From an uncultured Acidimicrobiia bacterium (GTDB taxonomy: Bacteria > Actinomycetota > Acidimicrobiia > Acidimicrobiales > AC-14): a DNA stretch of 64,000 nucleotides. The position numbers and the translations under genes are program-made. Below, in pieces: positions 1 to 53,217 of this stretch (positions are counted from its first letter, which is position 1; each line of letters opens with the position of its first letter). A model generated the notes under the pieces. That model was given only the letters and a program-made list of their open reading frames with translations, was not told where the DNA came from and did not search any database. Location of the stretch: assembly GCA_963836205.1 (NCBI GenBank), contig CAWIIV010000015.1, positions 384,001 to 448,000 on the forward strand, in the 5' to 3' direction.

Positions 1-1650
1 ATCCCGGCCGGCACCGAGGTGGCGACGCTGCGGACGGAGGCGATCGAGGCCGTCGCCTTCGAGACCGCCGACGACCTCGAGATCCTGCCCACCACGGCCG
101 ACCTGGTTGCCTCCGCCATCCAGCCCGGCCGCTACCGCCAGCACCGGGCCGCCCTCGACAGCGGGCAAAGCTTCTTCTGCTTCGACCAGGTGCCGAAGCC
201 CGACGACGCCCTCCTCGTGGGACTGTCCCGGGCCGCGCCCCGCTGCATCGTCACCCTGCGGTTCGACTGCCAGGTGGAGGGCGTCGGCGTCGACCCCACC
301 AACCCGCCGCTGGCGTGGGAGGCGTGGGACGGCGACGGGTGGGCTCCGTGCGAGGTGAGCCAGGACGACACCGGCGGCCTGAACCGTCCCGGCGACGTGG
401 TCGTGCACCTGCCCGACAACCACCAGACGTCGGTGCTCGACGGCCGGGCCGCGGGGTGGCTGCGCTGCCGGGTGATCCCGGCCCTGGAGAACCAGCCGGT
501 GTACAGCTCGTCGCCCCAGATCCGGCGGCTCGACGCGTTCACCGTCGGGGGCACGATCGCCGCGGTCAACGCCGAGGAGTTCACCGACGAGGCCCTGGGC
601 GCATCCGAAGGGGTTCCCGGCCAGCAGTTCCAGCTCCAGCACCCGCCGGTGGTGCCCTTCGGCGACCCGCCGGTGCTCGAGGTGGCGGGCGTCGAGGGGT
701 GGGACGAGTGGCGCCTGGTCGAGAGCTTCGCCGCCAGCGGGCCCGACGATCGCCATTTCGTCCTCGACGGGGGCCAGGGCCGGGTGGAGCTGGGGCCGGC
801 CGTGCGGGAGGGCGACGGCACCCTCCGCCACTACGGCGCCGTCCCGCCCAAGGGGGCGCAGGTGCGGATCCGGTCGTACCGCAGCGGCGGAGGACGCACG
901 GGGAACGTCGCCCGGGGGGCCATCAGCGTCCTGAAGTCGTCGATCCCCTACGTGGCCTCGGTGGAGAACCGGCGGGCGGCGCTGGGCGGCGTCGACGGCG
1001 AGTCGGTGGAGAGCGCCAAGGTGCGGGCGCCGATCCTGCTGCGGACGAGGGGGCGGGCGGTCACGGCCGAGGACTACGAGCAGCTGGCCCGGGAGGCGGC
1101 GCCGGAGGTGGCCCGGGTCCGCTGCGCGCTGACCGGGGAGGGGACCAACACGGCCGCCGTCCGGGTGCTGGTGGTGCCCGCTGCGCCCGAGGGCGACCTC
1201 GGCCAGCTGCGGATCGAGGACCTGGTGCCCGACGACCGGACCCTTGCCCGCGTCGCCGCCTACCTCGACGAACGCCGGGTGATCGGCACCCGGGTCGTGG
1301 TCGAGCCGCCCATGTACCTGGGCGTGACGGTGGTCGCCCGGCTGGTCGGGCGGGAGCGGGTGAGCGCCAAACAGCTCCACGACGACGCGCTGGCCGCCCT
1401 CTACGGCTACTTTTCTCCGATACGCGGTGGTCCCGACGGCACCGGGTGGCCGTTCGGGCGGTCGGTCCGGGCTGGGGAGGTCTACGGGGTGCTCCAGAGG
1501 GTGCGAGGCGTGGAGCTGGTGGAGGAAGCCCGGCTGTTCGGGGCCGACCCGGTGACGGGCGCCCGCGGGGTCGCCGCCGAGCGGCTCGACCTGCCCCGTT
1601 CCGCCCTCGTCTTCTCCTACCAGCACCAGCTCATGGTCTCCGAGGCCTGA
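1..1650 (+). CDS. Baseplate J-like (Afp11-type) protein of a contractile injection system, 5'-truncated by the window edge
   Basis: Motifs 'YRSGGGRTGNV', 'GGVDGESVE', 'RAVTAEDYE' and 'GWPFGRSV' are typical of eCIS/phage baseplate assembly proteins. The frame is open from position 1. Confidence 0.92.
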   Translation: MPAGTEVATLRTEAIEAVAFETADDLEILPTTADLVASAIQPGRYRQHRAALDSGQSFFCFDQVPKPDDALLVGLSRAAPRCIVTLRFDCQVEGVGVDPTNPPLAWEAWDGDGWAPCEVSQDDTGGLNRPGDVVVHLPDNHQTSVLDGRAAGWLRCRVIPALENQPVYSSSPQIRRLDAFTVGGTIAAVNAEEFTDEALGASEGVPGQQFQLQHPPVVPFGDPPVLEVAGVEGWDEWRLVESFAASGPDDRHFVLDGGQGRVELGPAVREGDGTLRHYGAVPPKGAQVRIRSYRSGGGRTGNVARGAISVLKSSIPYVASVENRRAALGGVDGESVESAKVRAPILLRTRGRAVTAEDYEQLAREAAPEVARVRCALTGEGTNTAAVRVLVVPAAPEGDLGQLRIEDLVPDDRTLARVAAYLDERRVIGTRVVVEPPMYLGVTVVARLVGRERVSAKQLHDDALAALYGYFSPIRGGPDGTGWPFGRSVRAGEVYGVLQRVRGVELVEEARLFGADPVTGARGVAAERLDLPRSALVFSYQHQLMVSEA

Positions 1651-1651
1651 C

Positions 1652-2191
1652 GTGCGCGGACTCGTCGACGGCCTCCCGTCGCCCCACCCGATCGGCGCCC
1701 TGCTCCCCGCCCTCTACCAGGAGGACGGGTTCGTGCAGCGGTTCACGTCCGGCCTCGACGAGGTCATCGCCCCCGCCCTGGCGGTCCTCGACAACCTGCC
1801 CTCCTACCTCGACCCGGTCCTCACGCCGGACGACTTCCTGCCCTGGCTGGCGGGGTGGGTCGGCATCGCCCTCGACGAGAACTGGCCCCTCGCCCGCCGC
1901 CGCCAGCTGGTGGCCCGGGCCGGCGACCTCTACCGGGCCCGGGGCACGGCGCGGGGCCTGTCCGAGCAGGTGGAGCTGCTCACCGGCTCGGCTCCCCGCA
2001 TCGAGGAGTCGGGCGGCACGGTGTGGTCGCCGACGCCGGGGGCTGCCCCGCCGGGCAAAGCGGTGGCCGAGCTGGTGGTGACGGTGCGCGAGGCCCCGGG
2101 CCAGCCCGTCGACCGCCGCCGCCTCGACTCGATCGTGCGCGACGCCAAGCCCGCGGCGGTCAGTCACCGCATCGAGGTGGTGCCCGCATGA
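1652..2191 (+). CDS. Phage tail I-like (baseplate wedge) protein of the CIS locus
   Basis: 'LPALYQED..FVQRF', 'YLDPVLTPDDFLPWLAGWVG', 'RGTARGL' and 'KPA' motifs; directly follows the baseplate J gene. Confidence 0.9.
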   Translation: MRGLVDGLPSPHPIGALLPALYQEDGFVQRFTSGLDEVIAPALAVLDNLPSYLDPVLTPDDFLPWLAGWVGIALDENWPLARRRQLVARAGDLYRARGTARGLSEQVELLTGSAPRIEESGGTVWSPTPGAAPPGKAVAELVVTVREAPGQPVDRRRLDSIVRDAKPAAVSHRIEVVPA

Positions 2192-3378
2192 TCATGTGCA
2201 AGAACTGCCGTATCCCCTTCGAGGAGGGGGCCCAGTTCTGCGGCAACTGTGGCGGGTTCGTCGACTACGTGGGCGTGAGCGAGGAGTCCGCGGCCCGGGC
2301 GGCGGCGGCCGCGGGCGCGCCCGGCCCGACCGCGGGTGGAGAGGCGGCGCCCAGTCCCGACACCGCCCAGATGGCGATCGCGGTCTCGGCGGCCGACGAC
2401 GCCGAGCGCAGGGCGGTGGCGGAGGCCGAGGCCAAGGACAGGGAACAGGCCGAGGCGTTGGGCCGTGCGGCTGCTGCCGCGGCGGCGGAAGCGGCGGCCC
2501 GGGCCGCGGCCGCGGCGGAGGTCGACACCGAGGCCAAGGCGAGGGCGGAGGAGGAGGCGAGGGCTCAGGCCGCGGCCAAGGCCAAGGCCCAGGCCGAGGC
2601 GGAGGCGGCCGCCCGCGCCGCGGAGGCGTCCCGGCGGGCGGCGGCCATGATCGCCAAGCCCGCCCCGACCCCGACACCGCCGCCTCCGCCCCCGCCGCCG
2701 CCCCCGAGGCCAGACGCCGGTCCCGCCCCGACGCCCGTGCAGCCGGGCGAGGTGGCCTGTGGCAACTGTGGTGCCGGCAACCCACCGAGCCGGACGTTCT
2801 GCCGCCAGTGCGGCACCGAGCTCCGCCCCGCGGCCGTGGTGCCGATCGCGGCGGCGAAGGCTCCCAGGGGAGGGTTCTGGGGGAAGTGGAAGGTGCCGAT
2901 CATCGGGGCGGTGATCGTCGCCCTGGTGCTCGGGTTCGTCCTCACGCGCGACGACGCCGCGGACGACATTCCCGACCTGCCCGACCTGCTGACGACGCAG
3001 CCCACGCGGCCGACGACATCGTCCGTGCAGCCGACGTCGGAGGTGGTGACCGTCGAGGCCAACGTGCCCTTCGTCGACACCGGCATCGAGCTCAAGGTGG
3101 GCGACCGTGTCGAGATCATCGCCCGGGGCGAGGCCGAGAGCGGCGGTGGGCCGTCGGGACCGGAGGGCGACCCCAATCCCGACTACCGGCCGGCCAGCGT
3201 CATCGACGGCGGCCACAACGCCCTGATCGCCAAGATCGGCCTCCGGGGCGACCCCTTCCTCGTCGCCGAACGGCTGACGTTCGATGCCGAGGAGGCGGGC
3301 ACCCTGTTCCTGGGCGTCAACGACACGGGCGTCGACAACAACGCGGGCGCCTACGTAGCCGACATCACGGTCTCGTAG
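2188..3378 (+). CDS. Zinc-ribbon, Ala/Pro-rich, single-TM protein with a C-terminal LecA/PA-IL-like domain (CIS-associated membrane protein)
   Basis: ATGA overlap with the tail gene. Two CxxC...CxxC ribbons, TM 'IIGAVIVALVLGFVL', and C-terminal 'DTGIELKVGDRVEIIARG...LIAKIG...GTLFLGVND..DNNAGAY'. Confidence 0.78.
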   Translation: MIMCKNCRIPFEEGAQFCGNCGGFVDYVGVSEESAARAAAAAGAPGPTAGGEAAPSPDTAQMAIAVSAADDAERRAVAEAEAKDREQAEALGRAAAAAAAEAAARAAAAAEVDTEAKARAEEEARAQAAAKAKAQAEAEAAARAAEASRRAAAMIAKPAPTPTPPPPPPPPPPRPDAGPAPTPVQPGEVACGNCGAGNPPSRTFCRQCGTELRPAAVVPIAAAKAPRGGFWGKWKVPIIGAVIVALVLGFVLTRDDAADDIPDLPDLLTTQPTRPTTSSVQPTSEVVTVEANVPFVDTGIELKVGDRVEIIARGEAESGGGPSGPEGDPNPDYRPASVIDGGHNALIAKIGLRGDPFLVAERLTFDAEEAGTLFLGVNDTGVDNNAGAYVADITVS

Positions 3379-3388
3379 GGTCGGGACC

Positions 3389-4882
3389 GTGGGCCGCAGG
3401 GAGAGGGATGAGCCGGAGGAGCTGCCGATCCTCCTCGACCCGGCGTCGAGCGACGAGTACCGCCCGCTGCCGCTGTCACCGGTCATCCGGGAGGCCCGCC
3501 GCCGGGCGTGGGCCCAGGCGGCCGACAACGCCCGCCGCGTCGGGATGTCCCGCCGCGACTTCCTGCGCACCTCCATGGGCGCGGCCACCGTCCTCCTGAC
3601 CCTCAACGCGTGCAGCAAGGAGGAGGCGGCCGACCGGGGGGCCCGGCCGGGCAGCACGTTCGCGGTGCCGAAAGAGGCGGGAGTCGACCCCGAGGCGGCC
3701 AACTCGGTGCTCGACGGCGACCTGCCGGTGATCGACGCCCAGAGCCACTTCCTCGACTTCGACCTGTCCCAGCCCCTCGACCCGGGTTTCTTCGGGTCCG
3801 ACTTCCCCCAGGCCATGTGCGGGGCCGACGACCCCCGGGCCTGCTTCGGCATCGACCGCTTCGTCGACACCCTGTACTTCCGCAGCGAGACGGCGGCGGC
3901 GGTGCTGTCGGCCGTGCCCGCGCCCGACGCCCGCACGGGCGAGCTGAGCATCGAGGTCATGGCCCGGGCCCGGGAGCGGATCAACCAGAGCATCGGTCCC
4001 GGCCGCCTGCTCGTCCACGGCCTCATCGTCCCCACCGGCCGGCCGTTGTCGGTCGCCCTCGACGACCTCGAAGCCATCGCCCAGACCTACAAGGTCGACG
4101 GATGGAAGGCGTACACCACCAACACCCAGGGGTGGCGGCTCGACGACGCCGACCTCGAGGGCCGGCAGGTGGGCATGGCGTCGCTGCAGAAGATCGTCGA
4201 GCTCGGGATTCCCCGCATCGCGATCCACAAGGGGATCTCCGGCGGCGACAAGTGGGCTTCCCCCGACGACATCGGCCCCGCGGCCAAGGCGTTCCCCGAG
4301 GTGAAGTTCGCGGTGTACCACTCGGGCTGGGAGCCGGGTGTGACCGAGGGCCCGTTCACGCCCGACACCGCCGACCAGGGCTCGAACCGGCTGGTCGCAT
4401 CACTGCGCAAGGCGGGCATCGGCCCCGGGCAGAACGTCTACGCCGAGCTCGGGACCACGTGGTTCAACATGATGCGCTCGCCCGACGAGGCCGCCCACCT
4501 GCTGGGCAAGCTCCTCCTGGCGGTGGGCGAGGACCGCATCCTGTGGGGCACCGACTCCATCTGGTACGGCTCGCCCCAGGGCCAGATCGACGCCTTCCGC
4601 ACCTTCGACATCTCACCCGAGTTCCAGGAGCGGTTCGGGTACCCGGCCCTCACCGACGCCATCCGGGGCAAGATCTTCGCCCGCAACGTGGCCGAGTACT
4701 ACGGGCTCGACCTGGCCACGATCGCCAAGCGGCCCCGGCCCGCGGGCTCGGCCGACACGACGACCACCTCGACGTCACCGCCCCGCCCGGCGACGACCGA
4801 GGAGACCACCACCACCCATCACGACACCACCACCACCGACCACGACTTCGACACCACGACGTCGACCACCGAACCGGACTAA
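3389..4882 (+). CDS. Amidohydrolase family protein with a Tat-like motif and a Thr/His-rich tail
   Basis: 'SRRDFL' followed by a hydrophobic stretch and a Cys; 'IDAQSH', 'IHKG', 'YHSG' and 'ILWGTDSIW' amidohydrolase motifs. Confidence 0.85.
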   Translation: MGRRERDEPEELPILLDPASSDEYRPLPLSPVIREARRRAWAQAADNARRVGMSRRDFLRTSMGAATVLLTLNACSKEEAADRGARPGSTFAVPKEAGVDPEAANSVLDGDLPVIDAQSHFLDFDLSQPLDPGFFGSDFPQAMCGADDPRACFGIDRFVDTLYFRSETAAAVLSAVPAPDARTGELSIEVMARARERINQSIGPGRLLVHGLIVPTGRPLSVALDDLEAIAQTYKVDGWKAYTTNTQGWRLDDADLEGRQVGMASLQKIVELGIPRIAIHKGISGGDKWASPDDIGPAAKAFPEVKFAVYHSGWEPGVTEGPFTPDTADQGSNRLVASLRKAGIGPGQNVYAELGTTWFNMMRSPDEAAHLLGKLLLAVGEDRILWGTDSIWYGSPQGQIDAFRTFDISPEFQERFGYPALTDAIRGKIFARNVAEYYGLDLATIAKRPRPAGSADTTTTSTSPPRPATTEETTTTHHDTTTTDHDFDTTTSTTEPD

Positions 4883-5166
4883 CTCTCCGCGGGGCCACCT
4901 GCGGGACGCGGTCCGCCCTCCGGTTCGGCCACGGCCGCCGATATCGCCTCCGTCGATCGCAAGGGCGTGGCAGCGAGTCTCCGCTGCCGGCCGTCTCCTC
5001 GTCGTCATCACCACGCGAGGGGTGCGACGAAATGGTCCGCCGGAGCAAGCGTGCACGTGTTCACAGACTCCGAGCACAAGGATCACGTCCACGTTGGCTC
5101 CAAGAGGAACCCTCCGGCCTAAGCAATTATCAACGACCTGGAACCTCAAACAGGTCTGATGTTTTC

Positions 5167-6602
5167 GGCTCTCCTGACCCAAGTGTGGATGGGATCGGAG
5201 CCGGCAGGCGTGTAAGTGGCTGGCTGAGCAGGTCTTCCGGTATCCGCGTGACGCGCACGGGCCGGGCCAAGGTTCACGGACTTCTCACACCCCTGAACCG
5301 GGAGGTCCTCAACCCGTGCGCGTCACCACCGCATTCAAGCGCCTCCTTCGGCTCGACGACGTCAACGTCGTCGCCGTGGAGTTCCTGACCACGATCGTGA
5401 TCGTCACCGTGGCCCTGCGCCGGCGGCGGCTGGTCTGCCCCCATTGCGGGTTCAAGACCCGGTTCCGCTACGACACCCGGCCGGCGCCGTCGTGGTGGCG
5501 CCACCTCGACCTGGGCACCTGGCGGCTGGAGGTCCGGGCCAGCCTGCGCCGTCTTCGTTGCCCCGACCACGGCGTGGTGGTGGAGGCCGTCCCCTTCGCC
5601 CGGCCGGGGGCGAACCTCACCCGGGACCTCGACGACCTGCTGGCGTGGCTGGCGACGAGGATGGACCGCACGGCGGTCGCTCGTCTGTGCCGGGTGTCGT
5701 GGCGGACGGTGGGACGGGCCTGCGAACGGGTGGTGGCGAGCGAGCTCGACGACCATCGCCTCGACGGCCTGTTCCGCATCGGGGTCGACGAGATCTCCTG
5801 GCGCAAGCACCACCGCTACCTGACGCTGGTGGTCGACCACGACCGGGGCAGGGTCGTCTGGGGAGCCAAAGGCAAGGACGCCACGACCCTCGACGCCTTC
5901 TTCGACGAGCTCGGGCCGGAGCGATCGTCCCAGCTCAGCGCCATTTCCATGGATCTGGGCCCGGCCTACCTCAAGAGCGTCAAGGCCGAGGGACACGCTC
6001 CCCAGGCCATCGTGTGCGCCGATCCGTTCCACCTCGTGTGCCTGGTGGGCGACGCTCTCGACGAGGTCCGCCGGGACCTGTGGAACCAGCTGCGCCGGCT
6101 TCCCGACGACCGCTGGGCCAAGGACTTCAAGGGAGCCCGGTGGGCCCTGCTGAAGAACCCCGAGGACCTGACCACCACCCAGGCCGCCCAGCGCAAGCGC
6201 ATCCGACGCAACCGGGGCGGGATGTGGCGGGCCTATGAGATGAAGGAGCAGTTCCGGGCCATCCTGGCCGGCGACCTCACCCGCGACGAGGCGGGCGAGC
6301 TTCTCGACCGGTGGTGCGCCCGAGCCCAGAGATCGCGGCTGGCGCCGTTCGTCAAGGTGGCCAAGACCATGCGCCAGCGTCGGGAGATGATCCTCAACGC
6401 CGTCGAGCACGGGATCTCCAACGGCCGGGTGGAGGGCTTCAACACCAAGGTCCGCCTCATCATCCGCAGGGCGTACGGGTTCCATTCCGCCGACGCGGCC
6501 CTGGCCCTCGTCATGCTCGCTGCCGGGCCCATCGACATCAAGCTGCCGCACGAGCGGGTGGTCTGGAAAGAGGCGTCCTGATCCACATCGTGTCAGAGAA
6601 CC
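5167..6602 (+). mobile_element. ISL3-family insertion sequence
   Basis: Imperfect terminal inverted repeats flank the transposase: left GGCTCTCCTGACCCAAGTGTGGAT, right (reverse complement) GGTTCTCTGACACGATGTGGAT. Confidence 0.75.
5316..6581 (+). CDS. ISL3-family transposase
   Basis: CPHC zinc finger, 'IGVDEISWRKHHRYLT', 'ISMDL', 'DPFHL' and 'SNGRVEGFNTKVRLIIRRAYGF'. Confidence 0.96.
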   Translation: MRVTTAFKRLLRLDDVNVVAVEFLTTIVIVTVALRRRRLVCPHCGFKTRFRYDTRPAPSWWRHLDLGTWRLEVRASLRRLRCPDHGVVVEAVPFARPGANLTRDLDDLLAWLATRMDRTAVARLCRVSWRTVGRACERVVASELDDHRLDGLFRIGVDEISWRKHHRYLTLVVDHDRGRVVWGAKGKDATTLDAFFDELGPERSSQLSAISMDLGPAYLKSVKAEGHAPQAIVCADPFHLVCLVGDALDEVRRDLWNQLRRLPDDRWAKDFKGARWALLKNPEDLTTTQAAQRKRIRRNRGGMWRAYEMKEQFRAILAGDLTRDEAGELLDRWCARAQRSRLAPFVKVAKTMRQRREMILNAVEHGISNGRVEGFNTKVRLIIRRAYGFHSADAALALVMLAAGPIDIKLPHERVVWKEAS

Positions 6603-6617
6603 CTCTGGTGGTTTCTT

Positions 6618-6662
6618 CCATGGATATTCGTGTACACTCAGGCTCTACATGCATATCCATGG
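6618..6662. promoter_or_regulatory. Inverted repeat CCATGGATAT-N25-ATATCCATGG, possible operator
   Basis: Perfect 10-bp arms at 6618-6627 and 6653-6662 in AT-richer DNA immediately upstream of the 6672 ORF. Confidence 0.4.
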
Positions 6663-6671
6663 GAGTACACC

Positions 6672-7205
6672 GTGATCAAGGTGGAGATTCGCTACGAGGG
6701 CACGCCGGCCGAAATTCGGGAGTACGAGCGGCTCGGGGAACCTGGGGGTCTGCCTCAAGCACCAGGCGAGGCGCACAACAACGAACTGGCGCCCGAGCTC
6801 TCACGGTTCCTTCAGCGTGTGAGCCACCGCAGCCTTGTGGGCGATTGGCTCCGCTGGGCACTCACGTTCGAGGTGTCCCTCTCAGGCTACGCGGGCGCTG
6901 GCGCCGCGCCGCAGCCGCGCCGGCTCATCACGGCGCGAATCGGACGGGGCGGCGGCGGGAACGAGCTCGACTACGTGCGGCTCTACACGGAGGGCTACCC
7001 AGCGACGATCGCCGTCCTGTATCGCAGCGGACGGCTAACGCTCCTGCTTGGACCCGACGCCGCAGGAGGACAGAACCACGTCCATGTCCGCGATGTTCGG
7101 GACCCTCACAAGGTGTTCGTCGAGCTGACTTCGAGTGAGGCTCTCGAGGAGGCTAAGGAACTCTTCGGCCGGACCGTCAGGTCGCGTTACGGACAGGGAC
7201 CGTGA
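6672..7205 (+). CDS. Hypothetical protein
   Basis: GTG start after GGGAG; ordinary globular composition; no family recognised. Confidence 0.6.
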   Translation: MIKVEIRYEGTPAEIREYERLGEPGGLPQAPGEAHNNELAPELSRFLQRVSHRSLVGDWLRWALTFEVSLSGYAGAGAAPQPRRLITARIGRGGGGNELDYVRLYTEGYPATIAVLYRSGRLTLLLGPDAAGGQNHVHVRDVRDPHKVFVELTSSEALEEAKELFGRTVRSRYGQGP

Positions 7206-7241
7206 TCCTGAGAACGCGCTCAAGCCGGCACCGGTAATCTG

Positions 7242-7433
7242 GTGTTCGTGGCCCATCACGCTCCGGATCTGCCCGCCGGCCCCGCCATCGTGGTGACGAA
7301 CGCCGACGAGGACTGCTCACCGCCGGCATTCCGCGCCCTGCTCGACGAGCTGTTCGCAAGCCCCGAGCCGGAGCTCGAGAGCATCGGTGCCGCTGAAGCA
7401 CTCAGAGAGCTGCGCGTCGACGCCGGCGCGTGA
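7242..7433 (+). CDS. Putative antitoxin (VapB-like)
   Basis: Small acidic ORF whose stop overlaps the PIN toxin start (GTGA); C-terminal 'AAEALRELR'. Confidence 0.65.
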   Translation: MFVAHHAPDLPAGPAIVVTNADEDCSPPAFRALLDELFASPEPELESIGAAEALRELRVDAGA

Positions 7434-7846
7434 GCGCAGTCGTCATCGATGCCTCCGCTGGCGCCGAGATCGTCGCCGACACGCGCCGTGGACGGGCGCT
7501 CGCCCAACTACTGCCTACCGACGCCGAGGGCTGGGTTCCCGAGCACTTCTATGCCGAGGTGCTCGCCGTCCTTCGGCGCCGGCTCCTGATCGAGGAGGCA
7601 ATCAGCGATCCCCAGGCCGCCGCGGCCGTCGCTCGGCTTTGCGCCTGGCACCTCCACTGCGCCTCGATCGCACCGCTGGTCAGCGCCGCCTGGGCCTACC
7701 GGCACAACATGACCGCCGCCGACGCCTTCTACGTCGCTCTGTCCGAACAGCTCGGCGCCGACCTTCTCACCGATGACCATCGCCTGGCTGACAGCCCCAC
7801 GTTCCCGCGCGCCGTCCGCGTGCTCCGGCTGGCCGCCAGGTCCTGA
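7430..7846 (+). CDS. vapC: PIN-domain toxin (VapC family)
   Basis: 'VVIDAS', 'AEV..VLRR', 'DAFYVAL' and 'LLTDDHRL' acidic PIN signature. Confidence 0.9.
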   Translation: MSAVVIDASAGAEIVADTRRGRALAQLLPTDAEGWVPEHFYAEVLAVLRRRLLIEEAISDPQAAAAVARLCAWHLHCASIAPLVSAAWAYRHNMTAADAFYVALSEQLGADLLTDDHRLADSPTFPRAVRVLRLAARS

Positions 7847-8010
7847 CCCTCCTCCGCGGGCGCCGTGGGGGGCCGCCAGCCGACCGCATCGGCGCCCTCC
7901 TGGCTGCCTGGCTGGTCAAGGGCAAGTCTTCCCTACCAGTGAACCCTCCAGAAACTTTTCAGCCCTTATCATGTACTTCCAGGGACAAAGCCCGGAGTCG
8001 GGCGCGCCGT

Positions 8011-8331
8011 TCAAACGACCTGAACCGCGTCCTTGAGCGCCACAGGTAGCTTCCCCGGAAAGGAGATGACGAGGTGCCGGTGCAAGGCCGTCGCGACCCT
8101 GGCGAGGGTGTCGATCCGGTTCCGAGCTCCGCCGCCTTCCTCGAGCCGGGAGATCACGGACTGGGTTGTTCCCATCCGCTGGGCGAGCTCTCGCTGGCTC
8201 AGGCCGGCCTCGGTCCGCAGGTCGTGGATGAGCTGCCCGAGCGCGAGGTCGCGCTCCACCTCGACGCGGGTCTCGGTCGAGGGGGCCGGTCGCTTGTTCT
8301 TGACGTCGTCCCAGCGGGAGTAGTTGGCCAT
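8011..8331 (-). CDS. XRE-family HTH antitoxin (HigA-like)
   Basis: 'LRTEAGLSQRELAQRMGTTQSVISRLEEG'; lies downstream of a RelE-like toxin. Confidence 0.88.
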   Translation of the reverse strand: MANYSRWDDVKNKRPAPSTETRVEVERDLALGQLIHDLRTEAGLSQRELAQRMGTTQSVISRLEEGGGARNRIDTLARVATALHRHLVISFPGKLPVALKDAVQVV

Positions 8332-8342
8332 CGTCGTCTCCT

Positions 8343-8669
8343 TCAGGGGTTCTCGCGGGCACACGCGGCGGCCACACGACGGGCTCGTGCGATCTCGTGT
8401 CGTTCGTTGTTGCGTTGCTTCCGGAACGTGGTCAGGATCACGATCCGCTGGTTAGTGGTGAAGCGATAGGTGATGCGTCGCGCCGTGGGACCGAGCGAGA
8501 AGCGAAGCTCGAACAGGCCGTCACCCACGCTCCTCGACATCGGCATTCGAGCGTCGGCGCCGAGCACGGCGAGCCGATCCCCCACGACGACCGTCCGCTC
8601 CCACTCCGGTTGCGGGAGCGAATCCAACCAATCGGCGACCTCATCGTGCAGCTCGATCTCGGCGACCGG
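8343..8669 (-). CDS. RelE/HigB-like (Gp49-type) toxin; start codon unclear
   Basis: 'EIELHDEVADWLDSL...MPMSRSVGDGLFELRF...RITYRF...ILTTFRK'. The frame is open to 8669, but the first canonical start is TTG at 8627. Confidence 0.8.
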   Translation of the reverse strand, partial: PVAEIELHDEVADWLDSLPQPEWERTVVVGDRLAVLGADARMPMSRSVGDGLFELRFSLGPTARRITYRFTTNQRIVILTTFRKQRNNERHEIARARRVAAACARENP

Positions 8670-9007
8670 TCAATGATCGCATGCACACGATCATCGCACA
8701 AGAGCGATCATCACAAGCCGTGCCCTCGGCTCGATCCCGCAGCTCAGCCCCCGCCTCAGAAGGTAGGCGCAGCGCAGGAGTCTCCTGCGGCCGTCCTGCC
8801 CCGCTCATGTCGACGCGATGCACGGCGGGCCTCAACCGCAGCCGCCCGAAACAGCAGACACCTGCTGGGGCGATCGGGCAGAACTGGCTGCCCTCCGTTT
8901 TCAAGCCGCCCGGTGTACCGTCCTACGGCCGGCCGCAGGGACGTCCGACGTCTCGTCCGACCGGATCCTCATGTCAGCGACGCGAGGCCAAGGGGTGGCG
9001 CGGCGTC

Positions 9008-11894
<2,887 letters not shown>

Positions 11895-53144: not shown

Positions 53145-53217
53145 GGGGGTGTAGCTCAGCTGGTAGAGCGCCACGTTCGCAACGTGGAAGTCGGCGGTTC
53201 GAGTCCGCTCACCTCCA
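53145..53217 (+). tRNA. tRNA-Ala(CGC)
   Basis: Full cloverleaf, anticodon loop TT-CGC-AA, G3:U70 identity pair, GGTTCGAGTCC T-loop; CCA not encoded. Confidence 0.97.

Follow-up and report, generated by a model that had tools for sequence, protein, structure and literature searches.

Positions 2188-3378 of a 64,000-nucleotide (nt) stretch of actinobacterial DNA (G000:C15:384001-448000, G+C content ~74 %), the whole of which is called the window here, carry a gene that is likely the Acidimicrobiia version of cisA. Its product would be a glycan-linked membrane adaptor of a Streptomyces-type (class IId-like) contractile injection system (CIS), with an ectodomain of the PA-IL/LecA family. Three plus-strand genes occupy positions 1-3378: the 3' end of cis11, cis12 and the cisA-like gene. 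The glycan reading makes the question of what triggers the firing of a cytoplasmic CIS testable, the PA-IL variant being a small, soluble, Ca2+-site-bearing domain that could serve for direct ligand identification. The finding also extends the CisA family beyond the actinomycetes proper, to the Acidimicrobiia. CisA and its general architecture have already been published; the PA-IL ectodomain on CisA appears to be new. A literature search revealed no paper joining 'contractile injection' with 'LecA', and a looser search had only LecA chemistry papers among its best 12 of 158 records. In the main text of the CisA study, as far as it was available (PMC12237407), neither 'lectin' nor 'zinc' occurs.

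The cisA-like gene in its injection-system cluster

The genes and the segments of the 396-amino acid (aa) protein, with its transmembrane (TM) helix, are:
1-1650, + strand: cis11, baseplate wedge (Baseplate_J, Pfam PF04865, E 7.4e-16), C-terminal 549 of 649 aa
1652-2191, + strand: cis12, baseplate wedge (Tail_P2_I, Pfam PF09684, E 1.5e-16), 179 aa
2188-3378, + strand: cisA-like gene, 396 aa, its ATG overlapping the cis12 TGA stop as ATGA
2188-2277, + strand: N-terminal zinc ribbon, aa 1-30 (C4, C7, C18, C21), weak Pfam DZR and Zn_Ribbon_1 matches
2374-2652, + strand: Ala/Glu-rich spacer, aa 63-155 (47 Ala, 14 Glu and 10 Arg of 93 residues)
2653-2745, + strand: proline-rich hinge, aa 156-186 (18 Pro of 31 residues)
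2746-2832, + strand: second zinc ribbon, aa 187-215 (C191, C194, C205, C208), DZR 1.6e-8
2890-2946, + strand: single predicted TM helix, aa 235-253, the hydropathy maximum of the protein
2947-3036, + strand: predicted extracytoplasmic linker, aa 254-283, Asp/Thr/Pro-rich by composition, poorly conserved among homologues
3037-3375, + strand: PA-IL/LecA-like C-terminal domain, aa 284-396 (~113 aa), by profile matches

All features that an earlier note on this DNA had described for 1-3378 were found where it had placed them, among them the two zinc ribbons, the Ala/Glu spacer, the Pro hinge, the one TM helix and the C-terminal domain of the 396-aa protein. The start codon of the third gene overlaps the cis12 stop, and the translational coupling to the baseplate genes proposed in that note is borne out by this overlap. 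The gene cis12 in turn begins 1 nt past the cis11 stop, and cis11 starts with a GTG at G000:C15:383701, 300 nt before the window, overlapping the stop of gp25. Five close homologues of the 396-aa protein have an identical architecture; the Ala/Glu-rich spacer is kept among them and is putatively helical. The second zinc ribbon also matched Zn_Ribbon_1 (3.4e-7) and DUF7577 (3.5e-6) of Pfam, while the protein was without a match in PHROGs.

A Cis12 scan of species-representative genomes gave 24 related loci (set 1). Cis12 of the window is 83-94 % identical to the proteins of four loci in Acidimicrobiia metagenome-assembled genomes (MAGs) and 43-54 % identical to those of the 20 other loci, which belong to 17 Streptomyces, Rhizomonospora, Actinocrispum and one Chloroflexi MAG. 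The closest loci being those of uncultured Acidimicrobiia MAGs, the host is placed among the non-streptomycete actinobacteria, as had been supposed.

In S. coelicolor, SCO4242/CisA occupies the same position, directly after cis11 and cis12 (PMC12237407). Casu et al. (2025, eLife) described CisA as a bitopic membrane protein that is needed for sheath contraction in situ; CIS-dependent cell death also requires CisA, with genetic evidence in S. coelicolor only, and CisA is absent from the composition of purified particles, according to the parts of that study available to us (PMC12237407). Vladimirov et al. (2023) noted in Sco4242 a TM helix, preceded by a Cys-rich, possibly Zn-binding region of ~50 aa, and a C-terminal domain of ~150 aa that resembles carbohydrate-degrading domains by HHpred (PMC10020575, seen in part). 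Set 1 presents the same picture: in 19 of its 24 loci, S. venezuelae ATCC 10712 among them, cis12 is followed by a gene whose product has CxxC motifs near residues 4 and 18; a second CxxC pair precedes the sole strong hydrophobic helix by 40-55 aa. Five loci have an AAA_22/Trans_reg_C/BTAD regulator after cis12 and no CisA. An alignment of 19 CisA-like proteins, S. venezuelae included, has eleven invariant columns, namely the eight Cys and G195, N198 and L212. By BLAST the second ribbon and TM region of the window protein are similar to Rhizomonospora and Streptomyces proteins at E-values of 1.5e-9 to 4e-6, which are flattering because the database consisted of only 19 sequences. Judged by its place directly after cis12 and by the eight Cys invariant in 19/19 CisA-like proteins, the third gene is a relative of CisA (Sco4242) in the CisA slot, in agreement with the adaptor expected at this position. 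The zinc ribbons, which the earlier note had singled out, are present; they are not peculiar to the 396-aa protein and have to be seen as features of the family, since they are invariant in 19/19 sequences of the conserved CisA core and a Cys-rich region had already been reported (in the part of PMC10020575 seen).

The charges flanking the TM helix are K/R/K/K (+4) on the N side and one R plus six Asp (net -5) on the C side. Because the flanks are positive N-terminally and acidic C-terminally of the helix, the positive-inside rule and the single hydropathy peak predict an N-in/C-out topology; the C-terminal domain would thus face outside, as the earlier note had assumed. This prediction agrees with the N-in/C-out topology measured for CisA with a PhoA-LacZ reporter (PMC12237407, as far as available). 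Both the topology and the domain content bear on a second explanation, first proposed for Sco4242, by which the protein is a tail-fibre-like receptor binder: the particle would be released or sit at the surface, and the lectin would read glycans of target cells. The gene does occupy the fibre slot, receptor-binding proteins typically carry lectin domains, and Sco4242 peptides have been reported from purified particles in the accessible part of PMC10020575. A strongly predicted TM helix, however, separates the lectin domain from the zinc ribbons, whose folding requires the cytoplasm, and a Pfam scan of the CisA-like protein found neither fibre-like repeats nor trimerisation domains. We regard the receptor-binder explanation as improbable.

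The 23 kb upstream of the window encode a complete contractile injection system. Open reading frames (ORFs) of 40 kb upstream (L009, L010) were screened with Pfam or PHROGs. Running towards the window, the genes are:
upstream gene 1: Pvc16_N cap protein, fused or adjacent to a LuxR-type HTH
upstream gene 2: WHD+AAA ATPase
upstream gene 3, L009:2533-5670, + strand: 1046-aa protein without family match, after the AAA ATPase
upstream gene 4: TauD-type dioxygenase
upstream gene 5, L009:10845-11417, - strand: eCIS_core (PF13699) protein, divergent, just before the sheath gene
upstream gene 6: sheath
upstream gene 7: gp19-type tube
upstream gene 8: chaperone-like ORF
upstream gene 9: second gp19-type tube
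upstream gene 10: CIS_tube+LysM
upstream gene 11: VgrG
upstream gene 12: PAAR
upstream gene 13: gp25, the last gene before cis11

The cluster is a CIS and not a prophage, because the sheath, tube and VgrG genes are present and no capsid, portal or terminase families occur among the ORFs screened in the 40 kb; the assumption of an injection system was right. Upstream, the matches to PHROGs were limited to a tail assembly chaperone, regulators and DnaE, and farther upstream, beyond the CIS genes, lie the housekeeping genes DnaE, GlnD and PII as well as MgtE. The system is of the Streptomyces type, probably class IId, since the Cis12-related loci are mostly from Streptomyces and Cis11 is 55-59 % identical to Streptomyces Cis11 (tblastn). 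The eCIS_core protein and the 1046-aa protein may serve this CIS as cargo or as accessory factors.

These findings leave very little room for a bystander, that is, an unrelated membrane lectin abutting the cluster or a defective prophage tail. An ISL3 transposase and toxin-antitoxin pairs do lie 1.5-5 kb downstream, and such mobile DNA would suit a chance neighbour. Against it stand the ATGA overlap with cis12, a gene order shared by all four Acidimicrobiia relatives, homologous N-terminal halves in 29 further loci (of set 1 and of a set 2 described below) plus three PASTA-type proteins, and the lack of phage head and packaging genes in the upstream DNA surveyed.

The C-terminal domain and its putative ligand site

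The canonical CisA C-terminal domain is of the F5/8 type C: PF25302 matched with 33 bits in S. venezuelae and 39-41 bits in two others, and PF00754 matched too. A profile of 14 such sequences (A5) found in the PDB the translocation domain of the S. pyogenes NADase (7ji1, 2.4e-12) and the CBM32 modules of NagH (1.5e-4) and NagJ (3.9e-3). The window domain had no similarity to this canonical domain by BLAST or by profile comparison (hhalign A2 vs A5, probability 0.2 %). Its sole Pfam match was DUF7245 (E 0.13), and phmmer against the PDB gave best E-values of 0.94-1.2, with a PA-I lectin homologue at 1.2. Profiles were needed for an assignment because such single-sequence evidence is insufficient.

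In a phmmer search against 1.84 billion representatives, the window domain matched 1526 proteins at E<=1e-3, 229 of them at E<=1e-10. Half of the relatives sampled (18 of 36) matched Pfam PA-IL at E<=0.01, and 11 of the 36 exceeded its gathering score of 22.5 bits. The strongest, P0016, reached 85 bits on Pfam PA-IL and is itself matched by the window domain at 3.5e-27. Profile A2, built from the window domain and 36 short relatives (37 sequences), matched PllA (5odu, 4.2e-9), LecA (1l7l, 5.6e-7) and three more PA-I lectin entries down to 2.6e-5 in the PDB; the match spans profile positions 51-154 and chain residues 16-116, thus the domain from end to end. The LecA-type motifs claimed in the earlier note are accordingly weak at the level of the single sequence and significant at the level of the profile. 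A feature search of the ESM Atlas, taken as a lead only, placed a PA-IL cluster first (0.93, 201/256 shared features). At profile level, then, the C-terminal domain is to be assigned to the PA-IL/LecA family. A second PA-IL-like domain was not found elsewhere in the G000 genome.

The alignment of LecA to the A2 profile, together with the column counts of A2, gave the following residue mapping:
LecA N99/D100 = window N378/D379, N/D in 37/37 A2 sequences
LecA N107 = window N384, 32/37 in A2
LecA N108 = window N385, 36/37 in A2
LecA G110 = window G387, 36/37 in A2

We take Asn108 of LecA to have a Ca2+ role. The residues His50 and Gln53 of LecA hold the galactose O6. In the A2 profile, His50 is an insertion, Gln53 falls at a variable position and Thr104 becomes Gly after a 2-residue deletion. 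In LecA, O2-O4 of galactose are contacted by Asp100 and Asn107, the latter being a Ca2+ ligand too (PMC9321714, seen in part). From this pattern we infer a Ca2+-dependent sugar site whose specificity need not be galactose. The sugar specificity is probably not the galactose specificity of LecA, because the O6 readers His50 and Gln53 as well as Thr104 are not conserved.

The domain is not confined to the injection system. A TM helix lies upstream of it in 18 of 23 other proteins checked, mostly ~20-50 aa away, and in the proteins scanned, TM helix and domain follow cytoplasmic caspase (Peptidase_C14), CHAT, Ser/Thr kinase or Hsp70-like modules. Examples are P0014, P0042, P0050, P0053-P0055, P0062, P0097 and P0109. 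Most of the short single-domain A2 relatives have a hydrophobic anchor at the start. Read from these architectures, with a TM helix before the domain in most proteins checked, the PA-IL-like domain recurs on the outer side of bitopic proteins associated with signalling or death. The pattern suggests that the PA-IL-like lectin family has an extracytoplasmic sensor role that is widespread and so far undescribed.

Ectodomains at the slot and the proposed mechanism

The C-terminal domains encoded after cis12 were surveyed in two sets of loci, with no locus >=98 % identical between them. The 24 loci of set 1 comprise four PA-IL forms, all from Acidimicrobiia, 15 F5/8 forms (one of them frame-split) and the five loci without CisA. 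Of the 15 set-1 F5/8 proteins, 14 went into the F5/8 profile, so their matches hold by construction. Two of the four PA-IL loci are intact; the other two can be read only through a frame change (assembly error or decay). For set 2, Cis12 was searched in 401 genomes of the phylum, 18 of which, G000 included, had a match; 16 of the 18 places outside G000 were taken. Of the two excluded, one lies at the end of a contig and the other belongs to an unpublished genome. Set 2 had 11 F5/8 forms, including that of G014, a genome of the same order as G000, one PG_binding_1 form (2.4e-8), three forms with PASTA x3 and one contig that was too short. Among the three PASTA-type proteins, one carries a PD40/TolB-like part and one is frame-split. 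Both sets together, 40 loci, thus present 26 F5/8, four PA-IL, three PASTA and one PG_binding_1 form, five loci without CisA and one contig too short; the survey of C-terminal domains that the earlier note had envisaged for this position yielded four ectodomain types. All ectodomains at the slot come from families to which the Pfam annotation ascribes binding of glycans or of the wall. The N-terminal zinc ribbon occurs in all variant forms, degenerate in the PG_binding_1 form, while the PASTA forms are without the second zinc ribbon.

Some genes of the survey are interrupted. The CisA-like genes of L012 and L014 (Acidimicrobiia MAGs), L025 and L051 have frame interruptions inside or before the C-terminal domain, the CisA-type gene after cis12 in L025 being split by a frame change; assembly error and real decay are not distinguishable in these genes. 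The same holds for Cis11, which is likewise split in L011, L014 and L026.

The proposed mechanism is modelled on Streptomyces. The cytoplasmic N-terminal arm would dock onto the baseplate, by analogy with Streptomyces likely onto Cis11, and the spacer would set the distance to the baseplate; if helical, its ~93 residues would span roughly 14 nm by arithmetic. The TM helix would anchor the protein in the cytoplasmic membrane, so that the lectin-like domain faces the cell wall and may bind a glycan in a Ca2+-dependent manner. The state of the ligand (bound, released or clustered) would then control the recruitment of particles to the membrane and their firing. A prediction of the complex of Cis11 (649 aa) with the cytoplasmic arm (aa 1-230) scored 0.00 in both runs, without controls, and speaks neither for nor against binding. 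The eLife study proposed that the CisA ectodomain may sense a signal; in its accessible part no ligand is named and the domain is called solute-binding-like (PMC12237407).

Several observations weigh against the glycan-linked adaptor and lower our confidence in it. Pfam PA-IL (PF07828) did not match window aa 257-396 at E<=10, and membership in the family had to be established by transitive and profile evidence because the Pfam model misses the window sequence. The assignment of the PA-IL fold comes from sequence profiles only. The galactose-specific LecA contacts His50, Gln53 and Thr104 are not conserved in the A2 family. Among 401 class genomes the full-length PA-IL form was seen only in G000, in a stricter first look that gives a floor, and the PA-IL form is a narrow lineage feature. 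That the particles are cytoplasmic, that the protein docks onto the baseplate and that a ligand gates firing is all carried over from Streptomyces; the host belongs to an uncultured MAG lineage. Even in Streptomyces, the contact of CisA with Cis11 has been predicted only, according to the part of PMC12237407 available.

The survey also bears on a static function, in which the PA-IL-like domain fixes a CisA-type tether to the wall or oligomerises it, and firing is triggered from the cytoplasmic side. PG_binding_1, found at the same slot, is a classic wall anchor, LecA is an oligomer, and the canonical CisA C-terminal domain is predicted to drive pentamerisation (in the part of PMC12237407 seen). 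On the other hand, the residues of the Ca2+/sugar site hardly vary within the family, a sign that ligand binding has been retained, and the same domain stands after TM helices in kinases and caspase/CHAT proteins, a sensor-like arrangement. PASTA domains, which are best known as ligand sensors and so count against a static anchor, occur at the same slot as well. A purely static role is therefore unlikely in our view, although it is the strongest of the alternatives.

For the glycan-linked adaptor, the envelope of the cell itself is a more likely source of the ligand than a foreign surface, because every module at the slot comes from a family annotated as glycan- or peptidoglycan-binding. That one adaptor core carries a LecA-type lectin here and CBM32-like, peptidoglycan-binding or PASTA modules elsewhere suggests a glycan as the firing signal. 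The four kinds of ectodomain are F5/8-C/CBM32-like, PA-IL lectin, PG_binding_1 and PASTA with beta-propeller. More tentatively, and with less than even confidence, CisA may be viewed as a modular family of transmembrane triggers with a constant zinc-ribbon arm and at least four interchangeable ectodomains, by which the state of the cell's own envelope glycans would license firing and cell death.

Neighbouring genes and comparison with known systems

Downstream of the cisA-like gene, the window carries:
3389-4882, + strand: Amidohydro_2 protein with Tat signal and lipobox-like Cys, starting 11 nt past cisA
5316-6581: ISL3 transposase
6630-7205: ORF without assigned function
7242-7846: small ORF and PIN toxin pair
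8011-8627, - strand: Gp49/HigB-like toxin and XRE-HTH antitoxin
8397-11894, + strand: large regulator, up to 1165 aa, C-terminal Trans_reg_C and BTAD (SARP-like)

The amidohydrolase at 3389-4882 was considered as a part of the CIS and rejected. It is probably not part of the system, because only one of the four Acidimicrobiia relatives has it after cisA (L011, 94 % identical); it was not found in L012-L014. The region of about 4900-8630 is an apparent insertion of ~3.5 kb relative to L011, where the large regulator comes immediately after the amidohydrolase. Relatives of this regulator adjoin the CIS clusters in L011, L015 and L016, and in five Streptomyces loci (L029-L031, L033, L034) a relative stands directly after cis12 in place of cisA. 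The large regulator may be a conserved CIS-associated regulator. A scan of window positions 3000-8600 for promoters and terminators revealed nothing exceeding shuffled expectation. One tRNA gene (53145-53217, + strand) was the sole Rfam match in the window.

In comparison with known systems, the window protein is closest in layout to CisA of S. coelicolor. Both share the slot after cis11 and cis12, a bitopic layout with a cytoplasmic N-terminal arm, an N-terminal zinc ribbon, a Cys-rich zinc ribbon before the TM helix, and an extracytoplasmic C-terminal domain of about 110-155 aa, the topology of the window protein being predicted. They differ in the kind of this domain, F5/8-type-C/CBM32-like in CisA and PA-IL/LecA-like in the window protein, and in the host, Streptomyces in one case and Acidimicrobiia in the other. 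The spacer of the window protein is a ~93-aa Ala/Glu segment with a poly-Pro hinge, whereas CisA has a longer, largely unstructured region (PMC12237407, as far as available). The CisA-type adaptors with PASTA and beta-propeller or with PG_binding_1 (L050-L053) occupy the same slot and have the N-terminal zinc ribbon, the TM helix and a glycan- or wall-binding module outside, although this outside module is a different one. With LecA of P. aeruginosa and PllA of Photorhabdus, the C-terminal domain shares profile-level homology over the whole ~100-aa domain and conserved motifs: GPxG, the N-D pair (LecA N99/D100) and N-N-x-G (N107/N108/G110). The window domain lacks counterparts of LecA His50, Gln53 and Thr104 as well as a 2-residue loop. 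While LecA and PllA occur on their own as soluble lectins, the window domain is the predicted ectodomain of a membrane protein.

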